Virus record (IMG/VR): IMGVR_UViG_3300033075_000810 | Strand: one strand, 5' to 3' | Origin: a virus | Length of the DNA: 64,000 nucleotides | Shown: positions 58-52,327 of the stretch, piece after piece | Layout of the letters: every line of letters begins with the position of its first letter | Numbering within the stretch: the stretch's first letter is position 1 | The notes under the pieces: model-generated | Seen by the model: the letters and a program-made list of their open reading frames with translations, nothing else | What the model was told of the DNA's origin: nothing | The model's database searches: none | Translations under genes and position numbers: made by a program

Positions 58-1200
58 TTATTGGAACAGCCTGGCGTGCGAGTCAATCACCTCCTTCACT
101 GCACGGAGGGCGTTCAGGGCCTCGTCCTCGCGGACGACGCACTTGTCAAGATTGCCATAATGGCTTTCAAGACAGTTCAGCAGTAGCTCCTTGATCGCCG
201 TCTCGTCCGGCGAGTGCCTGAGGGTGGACTTGCTGTACACCTCGGTAAGATCGGCCTCACGCTGGGTGAACCAGTCCCTCAGTTGCTGGAGCGTCCAGTT
301 GCCCCGGCGGATGTCCTTCAGCATCTCCTTGTGACGCTGGAGGTCGATGTCGCCCTCCACCATAATCTGCTCGGCCTCCATGACGAGCCTCACGACGTGG
401 TAGCCGAACTTCCAGTCGGCACCGTGGACCTTGACGCCCCCGAACCGCTTCGTCTTGGCGAAGCCGTCGAGGAACATCTGGTGGTAGGTCTTCAGCTTGT
501 CATCGGGCATGTGGTACAGCGGGCCGGCGGTGGCGATCCCCCTGGGGAGCATCGCCTTCCTGGCACGGTCGCGGCTCTCGATCTCCTTCTCCACGTCCTC
601 CAGGGTCGTCTTGCGGTCGATCCCGTTATCGGCCTCAAAAGCCCAGATGCCCTGGTACTCCTCGGCGTTGGGCTTCACGTCCATCTTGTGTAGCTGGCTG
701 TAGGCATAGCCCCGGAAGGTGTGCCAGGCCCCCTTGTGCAGGAACAGCCGACGCCTCTCGCGGACGAGGGTGGCGACCTGCGTGGCGTGCAGCACGCAGT
801 TGGTCGGCGTGAAGAGACTGTCGATCATATTCGGATTGTTCTCCATCACCAGATGGAAGTACCGAACGATGTTGTAGACGGAGAAGTCGTACTCCCGCCC
901 TTTCCCGGCCATCGCCGTCTCGTCCTTGATATGGTGCTGCTGCCACTGGTCGAACCGCTTGGTCTGGCGTCCAAACCCTGGGATTTCGCCGGCGAGGTGG
1001 GGGAATACCACCGGCTTGGACGGGATACAGAAGCCATACACGTCCATGTCGGATGTGTCGCTCGACACGCCATAAGCAGTACTTCCCATGATGGTCAGGT
1101 AGTGGCAGTTGGAGGGCAGCCAGTCCGGCGGGTGGATCAGCTTCCTCTTCTTCAGGTCTTCCAGCAGCATTGCGGACCTCCTTGGGCGTATATCTGACAC
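58..1200 (-). CDS. predicted nucleotidyltransferase (PF10127/RlaP-like, Pol-beta superfamily)
   Basis: N-terminal motif IMGSTAYGVSSDTSDMDVYGFCIP matches the GSxxYG...SDxD signature of the predicted-nucleotidyltransferase family; ORF reaches the window edge. Confidence 0.6.
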   Translation of the reverse strand: MSDIRPRRSAMLLEDLKKRKLIHPPDWLPSNCHYLTIMGSTAYGVSSDTSDMDVYGFCIPSKPVVFPHLAGEIPGFGRQTKRFDQWQQHHIKDETAMAGKGREYDFSVYNIVRYFHLVMENNPNMIDSLFTPTNCVLHATQVATLVRERRRLFLHKGAWHTFRGYAYSQLHKMDVKPNAEEYQGIWAFEADNGIDRKTTLEDVEKEIESRDRARKAMLPRGIATAGPLYHMPDDKLKTYHQMFLDGFAKTKRFGGVKVHGADWKFGYHVVRLVMEAEQIMVEGDIDLQRHKEMLKDIRRGNWTLQQLRDWFTQREADLTEVYSKSTLRHSPDETAIKELLLNCLESHYGNLDKCVVREDEALNALRAVKEVIDSHARLFQ

Positions 1201-11330: not shown

Positions 11331-12494
11331 TCACGCCGCGTGAACGCCGGTGAGGCGGTAGCGGAGCCGCCTGCCGTACTTCCAGGGGACGAGGTCAGCC
11401 CTGGGGTCGCCAACCCGCTGCGGGACGTAGTGCGTGTCCGCACCGGCCAGCGTCAGCACCATCTCCTCCGTGGACCTCTCCAGGCCGTAGAAGTCGGCCC
11501 CGAAGTAGGAGCCGAAGCCGGGGAGCTTGTCCAACGAGCCGTGGTCCTCAAACACCTCGGTCAGGATCTCGGCAAGGACCGGGGCAGTGAAGCAGCCGGC
11601 ACAGGCCCGGCAGGCGTGCTTGCTGGACACCTCATGGGGGGCCGAGTCACTGCCCAGGAAGAACCAGGGCTTGCCGCTGATGGCGGCGGCGATCAGGGCC
11701 TCGCGGTGCTTCTCCCTTTTTGGCTTGGGGATCGGCTTGCAGAAGTTGTGGCTCTCCAGCATGCCGCCGATGACGGCGTTCAGGTCATCGATCAGGTGGT
11801 GCAGCGTGATCGTGCCGGCCATGCGGCCAGTGTAGTGCTGGTTCAGGTCGTTGACGTAGCGGACGGACTGCCAGGTCGTGAGGTGTTCCAGCACCACCTT
11901 GATGTCGGGGTCCATCTGCAAGACGGACAGGACGAAACCCGTATTGAGGAACTCGCTCTCGCGGTCGAGAACGTCGAGTTCGGCTCCGGGGTGTTCGGGG
12001 TGGACCGAGAGCTTCATCTTGTTCCGGCTGAGGGCCGGGATGATGCGTTGCCAGTACGGGTGCAGGCCCCGCAAGTTGTCCGGCTGGACCGTCTCAGGCG
12101 GGTCGAAGTACTCCTCCGTCAGACCGCCCTCGCTGTTGGTCGTGATCTGCTGCGAGTGGTCCTTGCTTTCGGGGTAGATTTTCGCCGCGACCGCACCGAG
12201 CTTCGCACAGGCGTCGATGTCATCAGGTGTCGTCTGCGGTGTGAGTTTGATCGTGTAGAGCGGCTGGAACCACCTGTCGCAGAGGTCATCAATGGCCTCC
12301 TCGACAGCCTCCTTGTACGCCGCCAGGGAGACAGTGTCCTTCACCGGCCCCTGCGGGCGGTCGTTCGGGGTAGTGTTGGGCATCAGAAGCCCGTACTTGC
12401 AGCAGCGAGTGGTGTAGGGGGCTACGGCCCGCAGCAGGTCGCCGGCACGCCAGTGGATGTGCATGTCGGAGAACAGCGGCAGTCGGATACTCAT
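11331..12494 (-). CDS. pyrC: dihydroorotase (class II, homodimeric type)
   Basis: DMHIHWRAGDLLRAVAPYT...MPNTTP and FLGSDSAPHEVSSKHACRACAGCFTAPVLAEILTEVFE align with E. coli PyrC (DWHLHLRDGDML...; [24 protein letters not shown]); start taken at the internal ATG 12494 with a GAGGA RBS (the listed ORF extends to 12560). Confidence 0.85.
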   Translation of the reverse strand: MSIRLPLFSDMHIHWRAGDLLRAVAPYTTRCCKYGLLMPNTTPNDRPQGPVKDTVSLAAYKEAVEEAIDDLCDRWFQPLYTIKLTPQTTPDDIDACAKLGAVAAKIYPESKDHSQQITTNSEGGLTEEYFDPPETVQPDNLRGLHPYWQRIIPALSRNKMKLSVHPEHPGAELDVLDRESEFLNTGFVLSVLQMDPDIKVVLEHLTTWQSVRYVNDLNQHYTGRMAGTITLHHLIDDLNAVIGGMLESHNFCKPIPKPKREKHREALIAAAISGKPWFFLGSDSAPHEVSSKHACRACAGCFTAPVLAEILTEVFEDHGSLDKLPGFGSYFGADFYGLERSTEEMVLTLAGADTHYVPQRVGDPRADLVPWKYGRRLRYRLTGVHAA

Positions 12495-12565
12495 GCGAAC
12501 GGTCCTCGGGGTAGGATTTCGGTTACACGGCAGTGTAACGATTCCGAGGTCCGGCGGCAACCCTT

Positions 12566-30706: not shown

Positions 30707-30919
30707 TCAGTTGTACAAGAAGATGAGCCTGGCGTATTCCGACTCGACTGCCGCCTTGGCCTCTTCCAGCGTCGGGAAGGGGCCTACGCCTTTGATCTTG
30801 TTGCAGTAGACCGCGTTTCCGCACCACCCTCCCTTGTCGGGGTAAACGCCGCCACCCTGTCCATCCGTGCCGAAGCACCAGAAGTCAGGGCGAGGTTTGT
30901 CCCATTGCTGCTGCATCAC
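30707..30919 (-). CDS. hypothetical protein
   Basis: 70-aa ORF. Confidence 0.4.
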   Translation of the reverse strand: MMQQQWDKPRPDFWCFGTDGQGGGVYPDKGGWCGNAVYCNKIKGVGPFPTLEEAKAAVESEYARLIFLYN

Positions 30920-31344
30920 TGGCCCTCATCGGAGGGCAGGATCTCCTCGTCCTTGGCGTTGGGCCGGAAACGGGCCGGGTCGCCCGCCGCGTCCACGCTG
31001 AAGAGCTTGTAGTCGGTGATGACACCACCCTCGACCCGGCCCTGACCCCGCGTCTTGAACTCGATCTTGACCCCATCCTTGAGAAGGGAAGTCAGCACCC
31101 TGCCGTGCGGGGTGTCCAGCGTCTCGATGTCGGCCATCACCACGTCACCTTCCTGGCGAAGCGTAGCACGGTGGGACACCTCGCCGTACACGACCGGCAC
31201 GAACTGCGTCGGCGTGTCGAGATGCCCCAGGTAGGGCTTGCCCAGGTGGTCCCTGAAGCAGCCCTCCGTGTAGATCCTGCCATTTCTATTGGGAACGCCG
31301 AGCTTGCACAACTCGGCGGTGTACTTCACCGTCTTCTCGCTCAT
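30916..31344 (-). CDS. hypothetical protein (MSEKTVKYTAEL...)
   Basis: GAGGAG RBS upstream of the internal ATG; the distal part of the listed ORF is artefact. Confidence 0.5.
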   Translation of the reverse strand: MSEKTVKYTAELCKLGVPNRNGRIYTEGCFRDHLGKPYLGHLDTPTQFVPVVYGEVSHRATLRQEGDVVMADIETLDTPHGRVLTSLLKDGVKIEFKTRGQGRVEGGVITDYKLFSVDAAGDPARFRPNAKDEEILPSDEGQ

Positions 31345-31559
31345 GGAATGCTCCTCGCGGCCCTGATCGGCCTTACGAGGAGTATAAGTGTCAGCCCCAC
31401 TTCCAGGGAAGGATCTGGCCGGTGGCCCTGGTCTGGTGGCCCTCCCACCACCACTCCCACTCGACCGTGCCGCAGACGTGTGGGCACCAGTCCTCGCCAC
31501 GGTCGAACGCGGCCACGCCCTGGAAGAAGTACTTCTTGGCGGTCTTCAACTTCATGGGG

Positions 31560-34716: not shown

Positions 34717-34740
34717 AACCTCCTGCTGAGGTTATGTGAG

Positions 34741-34811
34741 TACCAGAGGTTGGAATCGAACCAACTTTTCATCCTTATGAGGGATGCGTCTTACCAATAG
34801 ACGACACTGGC
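34741..34811 (-). tRNA. tRNA with CAU anticodon (Met or Ile2)
   Basis: hand-folded: acceptor GCCAGUG/CUCUGGU (one mismatch), D-arm GUCU/AGAC, anticodon stem CAUCC/GGAUG with loop CUCAUAA, T-arm GUUGG-UUCGAUU-CCAAC. Confidence 0.5.
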
Positions 34812-34910
34812 AAATGTGATCTGAGACGGTCGGGACTGGGTTCCTCGTTCGGGGTTGCCCACACCTAGCCAGCCCATACGGCAACTCTCTGCCGCCTCAG
34901 AGACACCCTA

Positions 34911-35166
34911 TCATACGCGAGGTTCGCGTCTTTTTCTATAGTCCCTCGCCCATTTTCCCCGCCACTCGCAGTAGCCGACGATGGGCAGGACGGCGTCCAG
35001 CCTCACCTTAGCCAGGTCGGCTGAGGTGAGGCCCCGCAACTCCTCCTTGACGGCCTCGGGGAGGGCGTTGAATGCCTCCCCAGGCTTGCCGTCCCTGACC
35101 CAGAAGTGGTCGGGCTGGAAGTAGATGCCCTCCACGATCCGGCACAGGGCGTCAATCGCTGCCACG
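34911..35166 (-). CDS. hypothetical protein (GTG start)
   Basis: coding signal confined to the proximal 85 aa; AGGAGGG RBS upstream of GTG. Confidence 0.4.
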
Positions 35167-35391
35167 GTCGTCCACCCCCTCCTTGAACTTGCCGAGGGCC
35201 TTGATGAACATCTTCGCGTGCCAGTGGGCGTGGTCGAGGTCTTCGTAGTCGATGTCCCCGATGCGGAAGTACTGGACCCCCACCCGGAACCAGACGCGGT
35301 AGCCGGTCCCCTCATAGGGCGGCTTGTGGACAAAGACGTTCGGGCTGTCCGTCTTGGTGCATTCGCTCTCGGGGAACATCTCGACGCTCAT
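35152..35391 (-). CDS. hypothetical protein
   Basis: 79-aa ORF. Confidence 0.45.
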   Translation of the reverse strand: MSVEMFPESECTKTDSPNVFVHKPPYEGTGYRVWFRVGVQYFRIGDIDYEDLDHAHWHAKMFIKALGKFKEGVDDRGSD

Positions 35392-35398
35392 GGCACTC

Positions 35399-35779
35399 CT
35401 AGTAGAGTTTCAGGTCTGCGGTCACCTTGGCGAGATTCTCCGACCAGTTTGGGCCGATGCCTAGGGCGGTGGGCGTGTCGGGTGCCACCTCGGTCTTGCC
35501 GGCGTCCCTGATCAGGTAGGTCGTCAGTTTGTGTTCCTTGGCTTTGGCCTCCAGGGCCAGCAGGGCCTCCTCGCTGTCGATCTGGAACACGATGACGATG
35601 GGCAGCCTGAACAGGAACGACCTCTCCTCCTCGCTGATCAGGTCTTGCAGCCCCCGCCGGTAGCGGTCCCTCAGCCACGCCATCGCGGCGTGGCTGCCCT
35701 GGCCGATCTCCTTACCCCTCCTGAGCTTCAGGTCGCGGCGGACCACCAGGGCCAGTTTTGCTTCGCGGCTTGCCTCCAT
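35399..35779 (-). CDS. pth2: peptidyl-tRNA hydrolase, PTH2 (archaeal/eukaryotic) family
   Basis: KLALVVRRDLKL...GKEIGQGSHAAMAW...DAGKTEVAPDTPTALGIGPNWSENLAKVTADLKLY matches the PTH2 family (KMVLVVRTDL..GKGKIAAQCSHAA...DAGRTQIAPGS.TVLGIGP....VTG.LKL). Confidence 0.8.
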   Translation of the reverse strand: MEASREAKLALVVRRDLKLRRGKEIGQGSHAAMAWLRDRYRRGLQDLISEEERSFLFRLPIVIVFQIDSEEALLALEAKAKEHKLTTYLIRDAGKTEVAPDTPTALGIGPNWSENLAKVTADLKLY

Positions 35780-36314
35780 TCGCTTCCTCCAGCCTTTCTT
35801 GCAGGTGCCTCAGCACCCCGAACATGAACCTCATGTCCTTGACGTAGGTGCGGGCCAGTGCCGAGGCGTGGGCCGCGTCACTGGGGAACGTGTGGGACGA
35901 CCTGCCGTTGGTCCAGTCGCTCAATTCCGAGAGCCTGTCCCTGATCGCCTCCAGTTCGCTGTCCCGGTCGTTCTTGAAGGTGCAGAGCGTCACCGGCAGC
36001 CAGCACATCGATGCCTGCGGCGGCACGTCCATCGTCTGGGCGACCGGCATGTCCAGCATCTTGCGGTCGGCAAGGTAGACGAGGATCGTCGTGGGGTGCA
36101 GGTGCAGGCTGCCCTCAGCCACCATCTCGGTGATGGCCTCGGCCACCGGGGCGGACAACCCCTGCCAGACGATCAGGTTGTCCTTGCCGGGGACGTGCAG
36201 GATGCTCTGCCCCTTGGACAGGTCGGGCCACGCCGCCTCGATCTCCGCGAAGGAGACGTACTGCTTCGCATTGACCAGGGCGGCGATCTCTTCCTTCCAC
36301 TTAGCCTTGTCCAT
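35712..36314 (-). CDS. hypothetical protein (start at internal MDKAKW)
   Basis: 200-aa ORF; its 3' end overlaps pth2 by about 68 nt, so one boundary is uncertain. Confidence 0.4.
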   Translation of the reverse strand: MDKAKWKEEIAALVNAKQYVSFAEIEAAWPDLSKGQSILHVPGKDNLIVWQGLSAPVAEAITEMVAEGSLHLHPTTILVYLADRKMLDMPVAQTMDVPPQASMCWLPVTLCTFKNDRDSELEAIRDRLSELSDWTNGRSSHTFPSDAAHASALARTYVKDMRFMFGVLRHLQERLEEANGGKPRSKTGPGGPPRPEAQEG

Positions 36315-37312: not shown

Positions 37313-37921
37313 TCATTTCATCCGTGTCAGTGGGTACTGGTCCAGGGCGAGCAGCGTGTAGATTTTGTCCCGGTCGTCCGTGTCCTCGATCACACCCCTG
37401 CGTTTGTAGCGGCGGTAGACCGCCGCCGTGGCCCACCAGCCCCAGCACGGACCCGTCTTCAGGGGTCCGGCTATGTCGCTCAGGTGGTGGATGCAGTTGG
37501 TGGCGTGGCGGTCGCCATGCCTCTTGCGTGAGGCGTAGTCGAGGAACTTGTACTTGCCCGGCTTGTTCTGCTGGGCCTCGGCTTTGTCGAAGAACTCCTT
37601 GGTGATGGCGAACGGCCCCCAGACGCGGACGTGCCGCCTCCCGTTGACCGCATCCTCGATGGACTGCTTGCTCGTCAGGTCGTAGCCCTTGCCGGGCACG
37701 TCGAAGTAGCTGACCCGCTCCGGTGCCCAGCTTAGGCACACGTCTTTCTTGACAGTCTTGCCGTCATCGCTCACCTGCACGAAGGTGCCCCAGATGTGAC
37801 ACAGTGTCGGCAGCGGGACCGGCTTGGAGTCGTGGGCGAACAGCACACAGTAGCACTTGTCGGCCCAGGCGGTGCTGCTGAGTCCCAGCAGCAGGGTCAC
37901 GGCGAGCAGCAGTCGCTTCAT
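37313..37921 (-). CDS. secreted protein
   Basis: N-terminal signal peptide MKRLLLAVTLLLGLSSTAWA. Confidence 0.55.
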   Translation of the reverse strand: MKRLLLAVTLLLGLSSTAWADKCYCVLFAHDSKPVPLPTLCHIWGTFVQVSDDGKTVKKDVCLSWAPERVSYFDVPGKGYDLTSKQSIEDAVNGRRHVRVWGPFAITKEFFDKAEAQQNKPGKYKFLDYASRKRHGDRHATNCIHHLSDIAGPLKTGPCWGWWATAAVYRRYKRRGVIEDTDDRDKIYTLLALDQYPLTRMK

Positions 37922-40136: not shown

Positions 40137-40179
40137 GGATGGCTGCTCCTTAGGTGCTGATCAGATTGTAGGAGGGAAG

Positions 40180-40250
40180 TGCGGGATGCGGGAATCGAAC
40201 CCGCGTCTAAGCGTTGGGAACGCTCCATCCTACCATTGAACGAATCCCGC
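40180..40250 (-). tRNA. tRNA-Gly (CCC)
   Basis: GCGGGAU acceptor, anticodon loop UUCCCAA, T-arm GCGGG-UUCGAUU-CCCGC, 71 nt. Confidence 0.7.
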
Positions 40251-40259
40251 GAATGAGAG

Positions 40260-40331
40260 TGCGGCATGAGGGAATCGGACCCTACGACTGAAGTTTGGAA
40301 AACTTCCGTGATACCATTTCACCAATGCCGC
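40260..40331 (-). tRNA. tRNA-Gly (UCC)
   Basis: GCGGCAU acceptor, anticodon stem GAAGU/ACUUC with loop UUUCCAA, T-arm UAGGG-UCCGAUU-CCCUC. Confidence 0.7.
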
Positions 40332-40333
40332 AT

Positions 40334-40406
40334 GGTGCGTCTTGCCGGAATCGAACCGGCGATTTGTGCATGGCAAGCACACGCGATACCACTTCACCAA
40401 AGACGC
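40334..40406 (-). tRNA. tRNA-Gly (GCC), CCA encoded
   Basis: GCGUCUU acceptor, anticodon stem UGUGC/GCACA with loop UUGCCAU, T-arm GCCGG-UUCGAUU-CCGGC, 3' ACCA encoded. Confidence 0.7.
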
Positions 40407-40778
40407 AGTCTACCCCTAAGATAGTGTCCTGCCCCTCATTTTTCAAGGGCAGAAGCGAAATGGCCCCCGAGGGCGGGTAACCTCGGGGGCCGCAGGAAGG
40501 CAGATGGAGGGTCGCGTTCTTAGCTCTTCATGGCTCGTTCTCCGTGGGCCAAGGGGCCTGAATCTCAGTCGCCCCCGATGTCACCAGTAGTGCCGTCGCG
40601 GAAAGAGTCTGTCAGTCTAGTAGGGTTCGATGCAGGTCACATGGCTAACTCTCCGTGGTTGGGTGACTCCAGGGAGTGAGTACCACCGGCCTCCGGGGTG
40701 AGGGTTGACTATGACTTCTCACCCCATTGCTCGGTCGCCCCACGTCACGATGACAGTTTACCCAGGGCGACCGTTCTG
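40407..40778 (-). other. about 370-nt non-coding region with several strong hairpins between the Thg1-like gene and the tRNA-Gly array; candidate structured RNA or processing/regulatory region
   Basis: no credible ORF; perfect inverted repeats GCCCCCGAGG/CCUCGGGGGC (40463-40490) and GGGGUGAG/CUCACCCC (about 40698-40728). Confidence 0.35.
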
Positions 40779-41600
40779 TCAAGCAACCTTTTCCGCCAGA
40801 TTCGGCTCCTCACCGTAGAAGAAGACCCTGACACGGTTTGCGACCTGCGTGATGGGCGGCAGGTCCAGGGCGACCACGTCCGTCCGCTCCACCATCAGGT
40901 CCGGGTTGGTCCTGGCCTGGTGTTTGGGCGGCAGGTTGACCATCTCCTCGGTCGTGAACCGCCGGACGGTCTTCTTCCTCTGGAAGTAGGTGCCCCGCTT
41001 GAAGAACGCGGGGTAGTCGTTCCAGTTGATCCCCCGCTGCCAGAGCATCTCCTGCATCTGGCTGCCGTTCTTGTCCTGAAGCTCCTTGTGGCTGAAGTAG
41101 GCCCTCGCCGCCATCGAGATCGAGTTCTTGGTGGCGTCCAGTTCCCTCCAGACGAAGACGTTCGACGCCTCGTCCAGGGTAGGGCAGTTCCACACCCTGG
41201 CGTCGAAGGTCGGCATCTTCTCAACGTACTCGGGCAGTACCTGGGCGATGTGCCGGTTGAAGAACAGGGTCGCCAAGGCCGCGAGTTGGCTGGTCATCTT
41301 CTGGACCCGCCCGTCGAAGAAGATTTGCGTCCCCTCGTCAGCGGCGTACCACGCCAAACTGATTTCGTCGCTCTGCGTGTAGCCCACGCAGGCGTTAGTC
41401 TCGCGGACCAGATCCCTGGTCGTCTGCTGCATCACCTGGGACATCCGCTCGTCATAGGGGCGGTTCATGCCCTGGGTGAAGCGGCTGAAGGCACGCCCGT
41501 CGATGCGGGCACAGGCCGGTAGCCGGGGCATCAGGCGGCGTGCCGCCTCCATGCCCTCGTACAGTTTCATCCGGTCACCGAGTGCGTCGTTAGTAGCCAT
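40779..41600 (-). CDS. tRNA-His guanylyltransferase (Thg1)-like protein, 3'-5' nucleotide polymerase
   Basis: GDRMKLYE...ARIDGRAFSRFT...YTQSDEISL are the conserved Thg1/TLP motifs; start at internal ATG 41600 with AGGAG RBS. Confidence 0.8.
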   Translation of the reverse strand: MATNDALGDRMKLYEGMEAARRLMPRLPACARIDGRAFSRFTQGMNRPYDERMSQVMQQTTRDLVRETNACVGYTQSDEISLAWYAADEGTQIFFDGRVQKMTSQLAALATLFFNRHIAQVLPEYVEKMPTFDARVWNCPTLDEASNVFVWRELDATKNSISMAARAYFSHKELQDKNGSQMQEMLWQRGINWNDYPAFFKRGTYFQRKKTVRRFTTEEMVNLPPKHQARTNPDLMVERTDVVALDLPPITQVANRVRVFFYGEEPNLAEKVA

Positions 41601-46242: not shown

Positions 46243-46353
46243 CGAGGGTGAAGTCCCCGAACGTCATGGCGTCCTCGCGGACAGCCTGGATCAGCCTCTC
46301 CTTCAAGCTCGCATCCATTCCCGTAGTCCCCTTGGTCACACCGAGTCTGCCAG

Positions 46354-46422
46354 TCACCCCAAGAGGAATCGAACCTCTCAAGCAGTTTTAGGAGAACCGC
46401 CGCCGAATCCATCGGTGGGGTG
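46354..46422 (-). tRNA. tRNA-Arg (CCU), compact D-arm
   Basis: perfect acceptor CACCCCA/UGGGGUG, anticodon stem CGGUU/AACUG with loop CUCCUAA, T-arm AGAGG-UUCGAUU-CCUCU; D-stem CCGA/UCGG begins directly at position 8. Confidence 0.5.
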
Positions 46423-46527
46423 CGAATCGAAACTCACACGCTATTCTAGCTCACTGACTTTCAACCCAGGAGCCGCCATGAACCACTGGGAGTTCGATCA
46501 CGGCAAGCTGGACCGGCCTCTGGCCCT

Positions 46528-51575: not shown

Positions 51576-51673
51576 GTTGTCGCTCCAGTTCGCTGTTGGT
51601 TAGGATGGTTGCCGGACGTAAGGCAACAGTTTTACCCCGAGCATTCAATTTGTCAACCCGAGAAGGAGAGCCT

Positions 51674-52327
51674 GTGGAGAGCAAAATCATCGTGGCCCTG
51701 GATGGCATGGACTGGGAGGTCGCCCGCCGCCTGGCACGATCCCTGAGGGACGAGGTCTGGGGCTTCAAGGTCAACGACGCCCTCATCGACAAGGGCCTCG
51801 ACTGCGTCCACGAACTCAAGAACCTGGGCGTCAACGTGTTCGCGGACCCGAAGCTGCACGACATCCCCAACACGGTTGGCAACGCCGTCAAGAAGATCGT
51901 GAGGGCCGGGGCCGACATCATCACGGTCCACGCGATGGGTGGCTTTGACATGCTCAGGGCTGCCGTGGCCGAGGGCGGGCCACGCATCGCCGCTGTCAGC
52001 CTCCTGACCAGCATGGGCGACGACGACTGCATCGAGGTGTTCGGCGGCTTCCGCCGGAACATTCTGCCCGACCTGCTGAAGATGCCCGAGCGGGCCGGCG
52101 TGAGCAAACTGATTTGCGGCGTGCCCGACCTCGATCTGGTCGGCATCCGCTTCTTCACCATCGTGCCCGGCATCAGGGTCGAGCAGACGGTGGACGACGA
52201 CCAGAAGAACCGGGGCATCCCCAAGAACGGCACCTACGGACTGACCGTGGTCGGCAGGCCCATCACCAAGGCCCCGGACCCCGTCGCCGCCGCCAAGCTC
52301 TACAACCAGATCCTCAACGACGCCTGA
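51674..52327 (+). CDS. pyrF: orotidine-5'-phosphate decarboxylase
   Basis: IVALDGMD...FKVN...DPKLHDIPNTV...ITVHA...LLTSM...IVPGIR...VVGRPIT match PyrF signatures (DLKFHDIPNT, VHA, LTSM, VTPGIR, VIGRPVT); GTG start 51674 with GAAGGAGAG RBS. Confidence 0.85.
   Translation: MESKIIVALDGMDWEVARRLARSLRDEVWGFKVNDALIDKGLDCVHELKNLGVNVFADPKLHDIPNTVGNAVKKIVRAGADIITVHAMGGFDMLRAAVAEGGPRIAAVSLLTSMGDDDCIEVFGGFRRNILPDLLKMPERAGVSKLICGVPDLDLVGIRFFTIVPGIRVEQTVDDDQKNRGIPKNGTYGLTVVGRPITKAPDPVAAAKLYNQILNDA

Follow-up and report, generated by a model that had tools for sequence, protein, structure and literature searches.

A Pth2-family peptidyl-tRNA hydrolase gene of a large phage, with substitutions along one active-site edge

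The gene and its neighbourhood

The stretch of viral DNA analysed here (the window; 64,000 nucleotides of IMG/VR record IMGVR_UViG_3300033075_000810) is part of a contig of ~114.8 kb with ~62% G+C, in which genes of unknown function are densely packed, mainly on one strand. At 35399..35779 its minus strand carries a gene of the Pth2 family of peptidyl-tRNA hydrolases, which encodes 126 aa, runs from ATG to TAG and has no internal stops. A ribosome-binding site, GGAGG (35786..35790, minus strand), is located 6 nt 5' of the ATG. The gene call available in the database (P0001) is only 115 aa long and begins at residue 12 of the 126-aa form. We prefer the longer form because of the position of GGAGG before its ATG and because the shorter one would truncate the first beta-strand of the structural model (residues E7-14).

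Upstream of Pth2 there is a gene of 200 aa with no assigned function (35712..36314, minus strand), the N-terminal half of which is phrog_7134-like; the start of Pth2 falls within its last 22 codons, in a different frame. In the related contig L001, the two are not adjacent: an 85-aa gene intervenes, and the start of Pth2 is ordinary. The simplest reading is that the overlap in the window results from the loss of this 85-aa gene. Downstream, a 79-aa gene (35152..35391, minus strand) begins 7 nt past the Pth2 stop; it has no family match in Pfam or PHROG and is probably on one transcript with Pth2. The next feature, tRNA-Met(CAT) (34740..34811, minus strand), is preceded by its own promoter-like site (34938-34910). 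A non-coding leader of ~100 nt (34812-34910, minus strand), for which no Rfam match was obtained, extends from this site to the tRNA, and an HNH gene comes after it. The whole tRNA-Met/HNH block is missing from L001. Searching the Pth2 gene and four neighbours with PADLOC gave no matches.

To judge by a head maturation protease-like gene, the HNH genes and 13 tRNAs (the number called in the window at default settings), the carrier is a large phage; its size was measured as that of the ~114.8-kb contig, and the 200-kb threshold for jumbo phages applies to the full genome. The protease-like gene (30916-31347, minus strand; phrog_207, E 4e-11) is short and stand-alone, is not near any structural cluster and is kept in L001. 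Additional Arg and Leu tRNA calls (46353-46425, 60050-60128, 60470-60544, 61279-61343 and 61426-61498, all on the minus strand) appear only at the relaxed ARAGORN threshold. The relaxed search also returned a tRNA with a four-base anticodon at 37495-37584 (plus strand), which we rejected as noise: it lies within a gene, on the opposite strand, and Rfam does not support it. Other genes of the window include a major vault protein homologue with MVP shoulder and Vault_3 domains (15776-18397, minus strand) and two genes of pyrimidine synthesis, encoding a dihydroorotase-like protein (11331-12560, minus strand) and orotidine 5'-phosphate decarboxylase (51596-52327, plus strand). A match to TIGR02996, which would hint at a planctomycete host, reached 22.4 bits and stayed under the cut-off of 29.05, so such a host is only a guess.

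The preliminary description of this DNA listed further translation-related genes as scattered over the window, and they proved to be real: genes for Thg1 (PF04446), a bL12 C-terminal domain protein (PF00542), type I MAP (TIGR00500) and CsrA (PF02599), together with the tRNAs, span ~20.3-59.8 kb. To this list should be added an RlaP-family RNA-repair nucleotidyltransferase (58-1200, minus strand; PF10127), which had been missed. The Thg1-like gene is located together with three tRNA-Gly genes at 40179..41600 (minus strand), 4.4-5.8 kb upstream of Pth2, and the same order occurs in L001. A single translation operon was considered and rejected: Pth2 is separated from the genes for RlaP, MAP, CsrA, Thg1 and bL12 by 5-35 kb. 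In contrast to this scattered layout, a subgroup of phage Pth2 genes resides in a compact RlaP-Pth2(-bL12) block (L166:5414-8803 and the contigs of P0004 and P0029; the L166 block also holds an RNA ligase), which represents a real tRNA-repair and ribosome module.

Family membership, distribution and origin

The gene at 35399-35779 is a complete member of the Pth2 family, and this assignment is confirmed well beyond chance. All four motifs quoted as Pth2 signatures in the preliminary description are present in the open reading frame. It had proposed a search against PF01981 (Pfam PTH2), with the absence of a match as the outcome that would speak against the family; the protein matches this profile at 94.8 bits (E 5.2e-27, profile positions 2-115 of 115), the curated cut-off being 23 bits. 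The NCBIfam model TIGR00283 is narrowly passed (83.3 bits vs. a cut-off of 82), while NF003314 (PRK04322), the stricter equivalog of archaeal Pth2, is failed (88.7 bits vs. a cut-off of 126). The PHROG match is phrog_1866 (E 3e-18), and the top PDB sequence match is human Bit1/PTRH2 (1Q7S, E 2.4e-19), followed by archaeal Pth2 structures. The AlphaFold2 model, with a mean pLDDT of 94.2, was aligned by Foldseek to Pth2 of P. horikoshii (1WN2) with TM 0.85 (E 1e-10) and to human Bit1 with TM 0.81, the range over the human and archaeal Pth2 structures being 0.79-0.85.

Comparison with the archaeal enzymes (S. solfataricus 1XTY, P. horikoshii 1WN2, M. jannaschii 2ZV3 and A. fulgidus 3ERJ) indicates a shared fold, the same length, the same Lys/Asp/Thr centre and the same C-terminal end, at 30-39% identity; the phage protein has no counterpart of S. 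solfataricus W49 or K56. Archaeal Pth2 is a homodimer, with dimerisation via helix 1, and it is the only Pth of the cell, whereas the phage gene is accessory. Identity to human PTRH2 is ~42%; the equivalents of its K81, Q85, D145 and T157 are kept, while those of W108, Q113 and K115 are replaced and the N-terminal membrane/mitochondrial leader is absent. Bacterial Pth1 (PF01195), which catalyses the same reaction as Pth2, is unrelated to the phage protein in sequence and fold, and the Pfam search gave no Pth1 match for it.

Pth2 also occurs outside archaea and eukaryotes. Apart from P0002, the sister protein encoded in L001, relatives have 35-52% identity and are numerous: one profile search returned 1707 clusters, at least 376 IMG/VR stretches carry the gene, and the 13 phage Pth2 records of GenBank (33-44% identity to our protein) include the annotated genes of phiM12 and Atu_ph07. 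Related phages were thus found to carry the gene, as the preliminary description had suggested checking: L001 holds a syntenic orthologue, and Pth2 is frequent in other phages. tRNA calls with a CUA, UUA or UCA anticodon (relaxed ARAGORN) lie within 5 kb of Pth2 in nine of 80 IMG/VR loci (L004, L007, L018, L022, L042, L043, L066, L070 and L079), and the Pth2 genes of these nine have no internal stop. One relative, P0045 (226 aa), combines PF08299 (DnaA C-terminal) with PF01981 and is possibly an odd fusion or a gene-calling artefact.

In GTDB genomes, 196 Pth2 matches were obtained, including those of Actinomycetota, Myxococcota, Gammaproteobacteria and Planctomycetota; C. glutamicum, examined as a control, is another bacterial example. 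The earlier statement that bacteria normally use Pth1 is borne out by the 201 Planctomycetota genomes: Pth1 is present in 180 of them and Pth2 in five, all of which have Pth1 as well. The planctomycete chromosomal matches (L164 of Singulisphaera sp. PoT; G057, G074, G150 and G185) fall in open frames of 294-357 aa; this could reflect a fusion or simply the length of frames in high-GC DNA. The sporadic Pth2 proteins of bacteria (Actinomycetota, Myxococcota, Bdellovibrionota, Gammaproteobacteria and some Planctomycetota, e.g., Singulisphaera) share the GKE[IV][AG]Q motif type with the phage protein at 37-46% identity and are intermixed with phage proteins in the tree. In contrast to the phage protein, the conserved W and K are both present in them, and their position 98 is mostly Phe.

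In the careful tree of 80 rows, our protein and P0002 form a pair (100/99) within a phage-plus-bacteria group (100/99), separate from the archaeal rows. In the quick tree of 204 rows, the pair belongs to an unresolved group with archaeal rows and with proteins of the phages that have the RlaP-Pth2-bL12 operon. The nearest rows are phage-like proteins in both trees, and in neither is there a sign that the gene was acquired recently from archaea or eukaryotes. The phage protein is not grouped with the planctomycete chromosomal copies; in AU tests on 127 columns, this grouping had p 0.25, and a grouping with archaea/eukaryotes had p 0.42, so that neither was rejected. No donor can be named because the alignment comprises only these 127 columns. 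Of the preliminary description of an archaeal/eukaryotic-type Pth2 in a phage, the fold type and the large phage therefore stand, while the nearest relatives are those of phages and bacteria: “archaeal/eukaryotic-type” is a label of the fold and not of the source.

The surprise implied in finding such a gene in a phage was overstated, given that it is published (PMC3622015, PMC7824862), common and accompanied by bacterial copies. ORF188 of Klebsiella phage RaK2 was noted as a phage Pth2 in 2013 (PMC3622015), and the jumbo-phage review by Iyer et al. (2021) reported PTH2 in two phage groups and remarked on its archaeo-eukaryotic type (PMC7824862). As the review names the type of PTH2 and proposes its role, this reading was already in print.

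A two-member lineage with an altered active-site edge

P0002 (L001:10001-10390, in a 75-kb Logan contig) is the sole close relative of the protein, with 58-60% identity. L001 is collinear with positions 25-41 kb of the window (Thg1, tRNA-Gly, then Pth2, to tRNA-Thr and OGFr), the synteny of the Pth2 locus spanning 20 kb. Neither pattern scans over viral and metagenome contigs nor two profile searches revealed further members of the lineage, and Pth2 was absent from the DNA around seven Thg1-related viral loci, which covered up to 10 kb on each side.

By a crude Nei-Gojobori estimate, dN between the two Pth2 genes is 0.35 and dS is 1.25, i.e., a ratio of about 0.28. Over 12 gene pairs of the window and L001, the ratio varies from 0.24 to 0.79, so that Pth2 is among the lowest and close to Thg1 (0.29); these values are rough owing to high GC3. 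Since its ratio is below those of most neighbours, Pth2 appears to be under purifying selection.

Residue equivalences were taken from alignment to 1Q7S (human) and to S. solfataricus Pth2; all codons given below are on the minus strand. The core of the active site is kept: K23 (35711..35713), the core lysine, corresponds to human K81 and S. solfataricus K18, D92 (35504..35506) to human D145 and S. solfataricus D86, and T96 (35492..35494) to S. solfataricus T90, the proposed nucleophile. D92 and T96 are invariant among 453 relatives. Mutagenesis of S. solfataricus Pth2 is said to have identified K18, D86 and T90 as the most important residues. The equivalents of human Q85 and T157, Q27 (35699..35701) and T104 (35468..35470), are kept too, which completes the putative active-site network described for human PTRH2 (K81, Q85, D145 and T157; PMC10217894).

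Outside the core triad, six of 29 conserved columns are off-consensus, a number matched or exceeded by only ~11 of 454 sequences. The conserved tryptophan and lysine at the start of strand 2 (human W108 and K115) are both absent: F55 (35615..35617) replaces a tryptophan present in 448 of the 453 relatives and retained in P0002, and V62 (35594..35596) replaces a lysine present in 442 (S. solfataricus K56). In addition, A117 (35429..35431) occupies the place of an aspartate (405/453), glycine that of alanine at position 26 (416/453), and P60 that of human Q113. P0002 has the same residues at positions 62, 117 and 26, and its own change, H30W, affects a histidine kept in 451 of the 453 relatives. 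This loss of several near-invariant residues was not mentioned in the preliminary description.

Assembly error as a cause of K62V and D117A was rejected because the sister protein carries both changes. The idea that the losses of K62 and D117 compensate each other is unsupported too, as the aspartate is retained in most other sequences without the lysine. The lysine is missing in ~10 other, unrelated Pth2 sequences among the 453 relatives, so it is a conserved feature of the family and not a defining one. With this near-invariant lysine and other conserved positions lost, the activity or specificity of the two-member lineage may differ from that of other Pth2.

Proposed role in infection and its alternatives

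We consider it likely, with a probability of about 0.72, that the protein is an active and ungated Pth2, which would cleave peptidyl- and N-acyl-aminoacyl-tRNA and return the tRNA to use during infection. The Pth2 fold, the kept core residues, the intact gene, purifying selection and carriage by a large phage speak for this reading, while the off-consensus columns, K62V and W55F among them, and the missed cut-off of NF003314 speak against it. As in the rest of the family, the enzyme would hydrolyse the ester joining the tRNA 3' end to an N-blocked amino acid or peptide, with Lys23/Asp92/Thr96 as the predicted catalytic centre, and the tRNA would go back into the free pool. During infection, peptidyl-tRNA and N-acyl-aminoacyl-tRNA would be left behind as phage mRNA is translated heavily, ribosomes stall and the host attacks tRNA or ribosomes, and the phage Pth2 may supplement or substitute for host Pth1. 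It may be a part of a dispersed tRNA-upkeep set (RlaP, Thg1 and tRNAs) rather than of one operon; in related phages, Pth2 genes adjoin those for RlaP, RNA ligase and bL12.

Phage-made peptidyl-tRNA can be limiting, as demonstrated by the lambda bar minigenes, which poison E. coli cells deficient in Pth (PMC8012679), and for the PTH2 of jumbo phages a ribosome-rescue role was proposed alongside RlaP and Thg1 (PMC7824862). We found no publication in which a phage Pth2 had been assayed. The benefit for the phage is not obvious because its likely host already has Pth1; added tRNA recycling on top of host Pth1 is most likely, being the best-supported role.

It is possible, if unlikely, that the enzyme is a specialised variant, in which the rebuilt edge of the active site (F55, P60 and V62, with H30W in P0002) shifts the preference to a particular blocked tRNA. 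An example of such a substrate is N-acetyl-Gly-tRNA, as made by host toxins of the TacT type; Pth2 would then serve in counter-defence and not as a general recycler. Consistent with this, K62V, D117A and A26G are common to both lineage members, and human W108, Q113 and K115 constitute one interacting group in which K115 is a putative active-site residue (PMC10217894). In bacteria, Pth undoes the TacT acetylation of Gly-tRNA (PMC9241777), and tRNA-Gly genes occur upstream of Pth2 in both phages. However, the TacT evidence concerns Pth1 and not Pth2, the tRNA-Gly genes are 4.4 kb off and next to Thg1, and just two members of the lineage were found despite further searches. The lysine is also lost in the unrelated Pth2 proteins mentioned above, which may mean that Pth2 can do without it and still act on its usual substrates. 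Nor do other phages support a link to Gly-tRNA: of 287 tRNAs near viral Pth2 genes, 19 are for Gly, which is no enrichment. The narrower proposal, that the lineage rebuilt this edge, with the K115/W108 equivalents lost, for a blocked tRNA such as toxin-acetylated Gly-tRNA and acts in counter-defence alongside the tRNA-Gly set and Thg1, appears doubtful.

A weak or dead enzyme, retained as a tRNA-binding or decoy protein or being in early decay, seems improbable as well. The loss of the near-invariant W55, K62 and D117, the long stem branch of the lineage (0.56-0.89) and the absence of the conserved histidine from P0002 would agree with it, but the core residues are all kept in both members, dN/dS is low, the fold is intact in the model and the ribosome-binding sites are good in both phages.

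Least probable by far is gating of Pth2 expression by recoding, with ribosomes either reading through a stop or shifting by +1 out of the upstream gene that overlaps Pth2. Although the Pth2 start codon falls within this ORF, in its +1 frame and 68 nt ahead of its stop, we reject gating because Pth2 has its own ATG, its own ribosome-binding site and a stop-free frame, while the L001 layout has the 85-aa gene between the two and the 64 kb searched of the ~115-kb contig contain no CUA, UUA, UCA or credible enlarged-loop tRNA, even at the relaxed threshold.

The protein belongs to the same family and has the same proposed role as the PTH2 of jumbo phages (RaK2 ORF188, Sinorhizobium phage phiM12 AGR48002.1 and Agrobacterium phage Atu_ph07 ASV44756.1), and its carrier is likewise a large tRNA-rich phage with RlaP and Thg1. 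It differs from them in forming a separate two-member lineage marked by K62V, D117A and A26G (with W55F in the present protein). Unlike in some related phages, its gene does not adjoin RlaP or bL12, and the phage is high-GC and perhaps one of planctomycetes.

Phage Pth2 is thus not new, and the sole oddity here is a few substitutions along one active-site edge. Because of these substitutions, this copy would be a poor first choice for assaying phage Pth2. It is a natural variant that lacks the putative active-site lysine and yet is under purifying selection. The gene provides one further example of large phages carrying Pth2 among tRNA-upkeep genes and bears on the question of why phages carry Pth2 when the host has Pth1.
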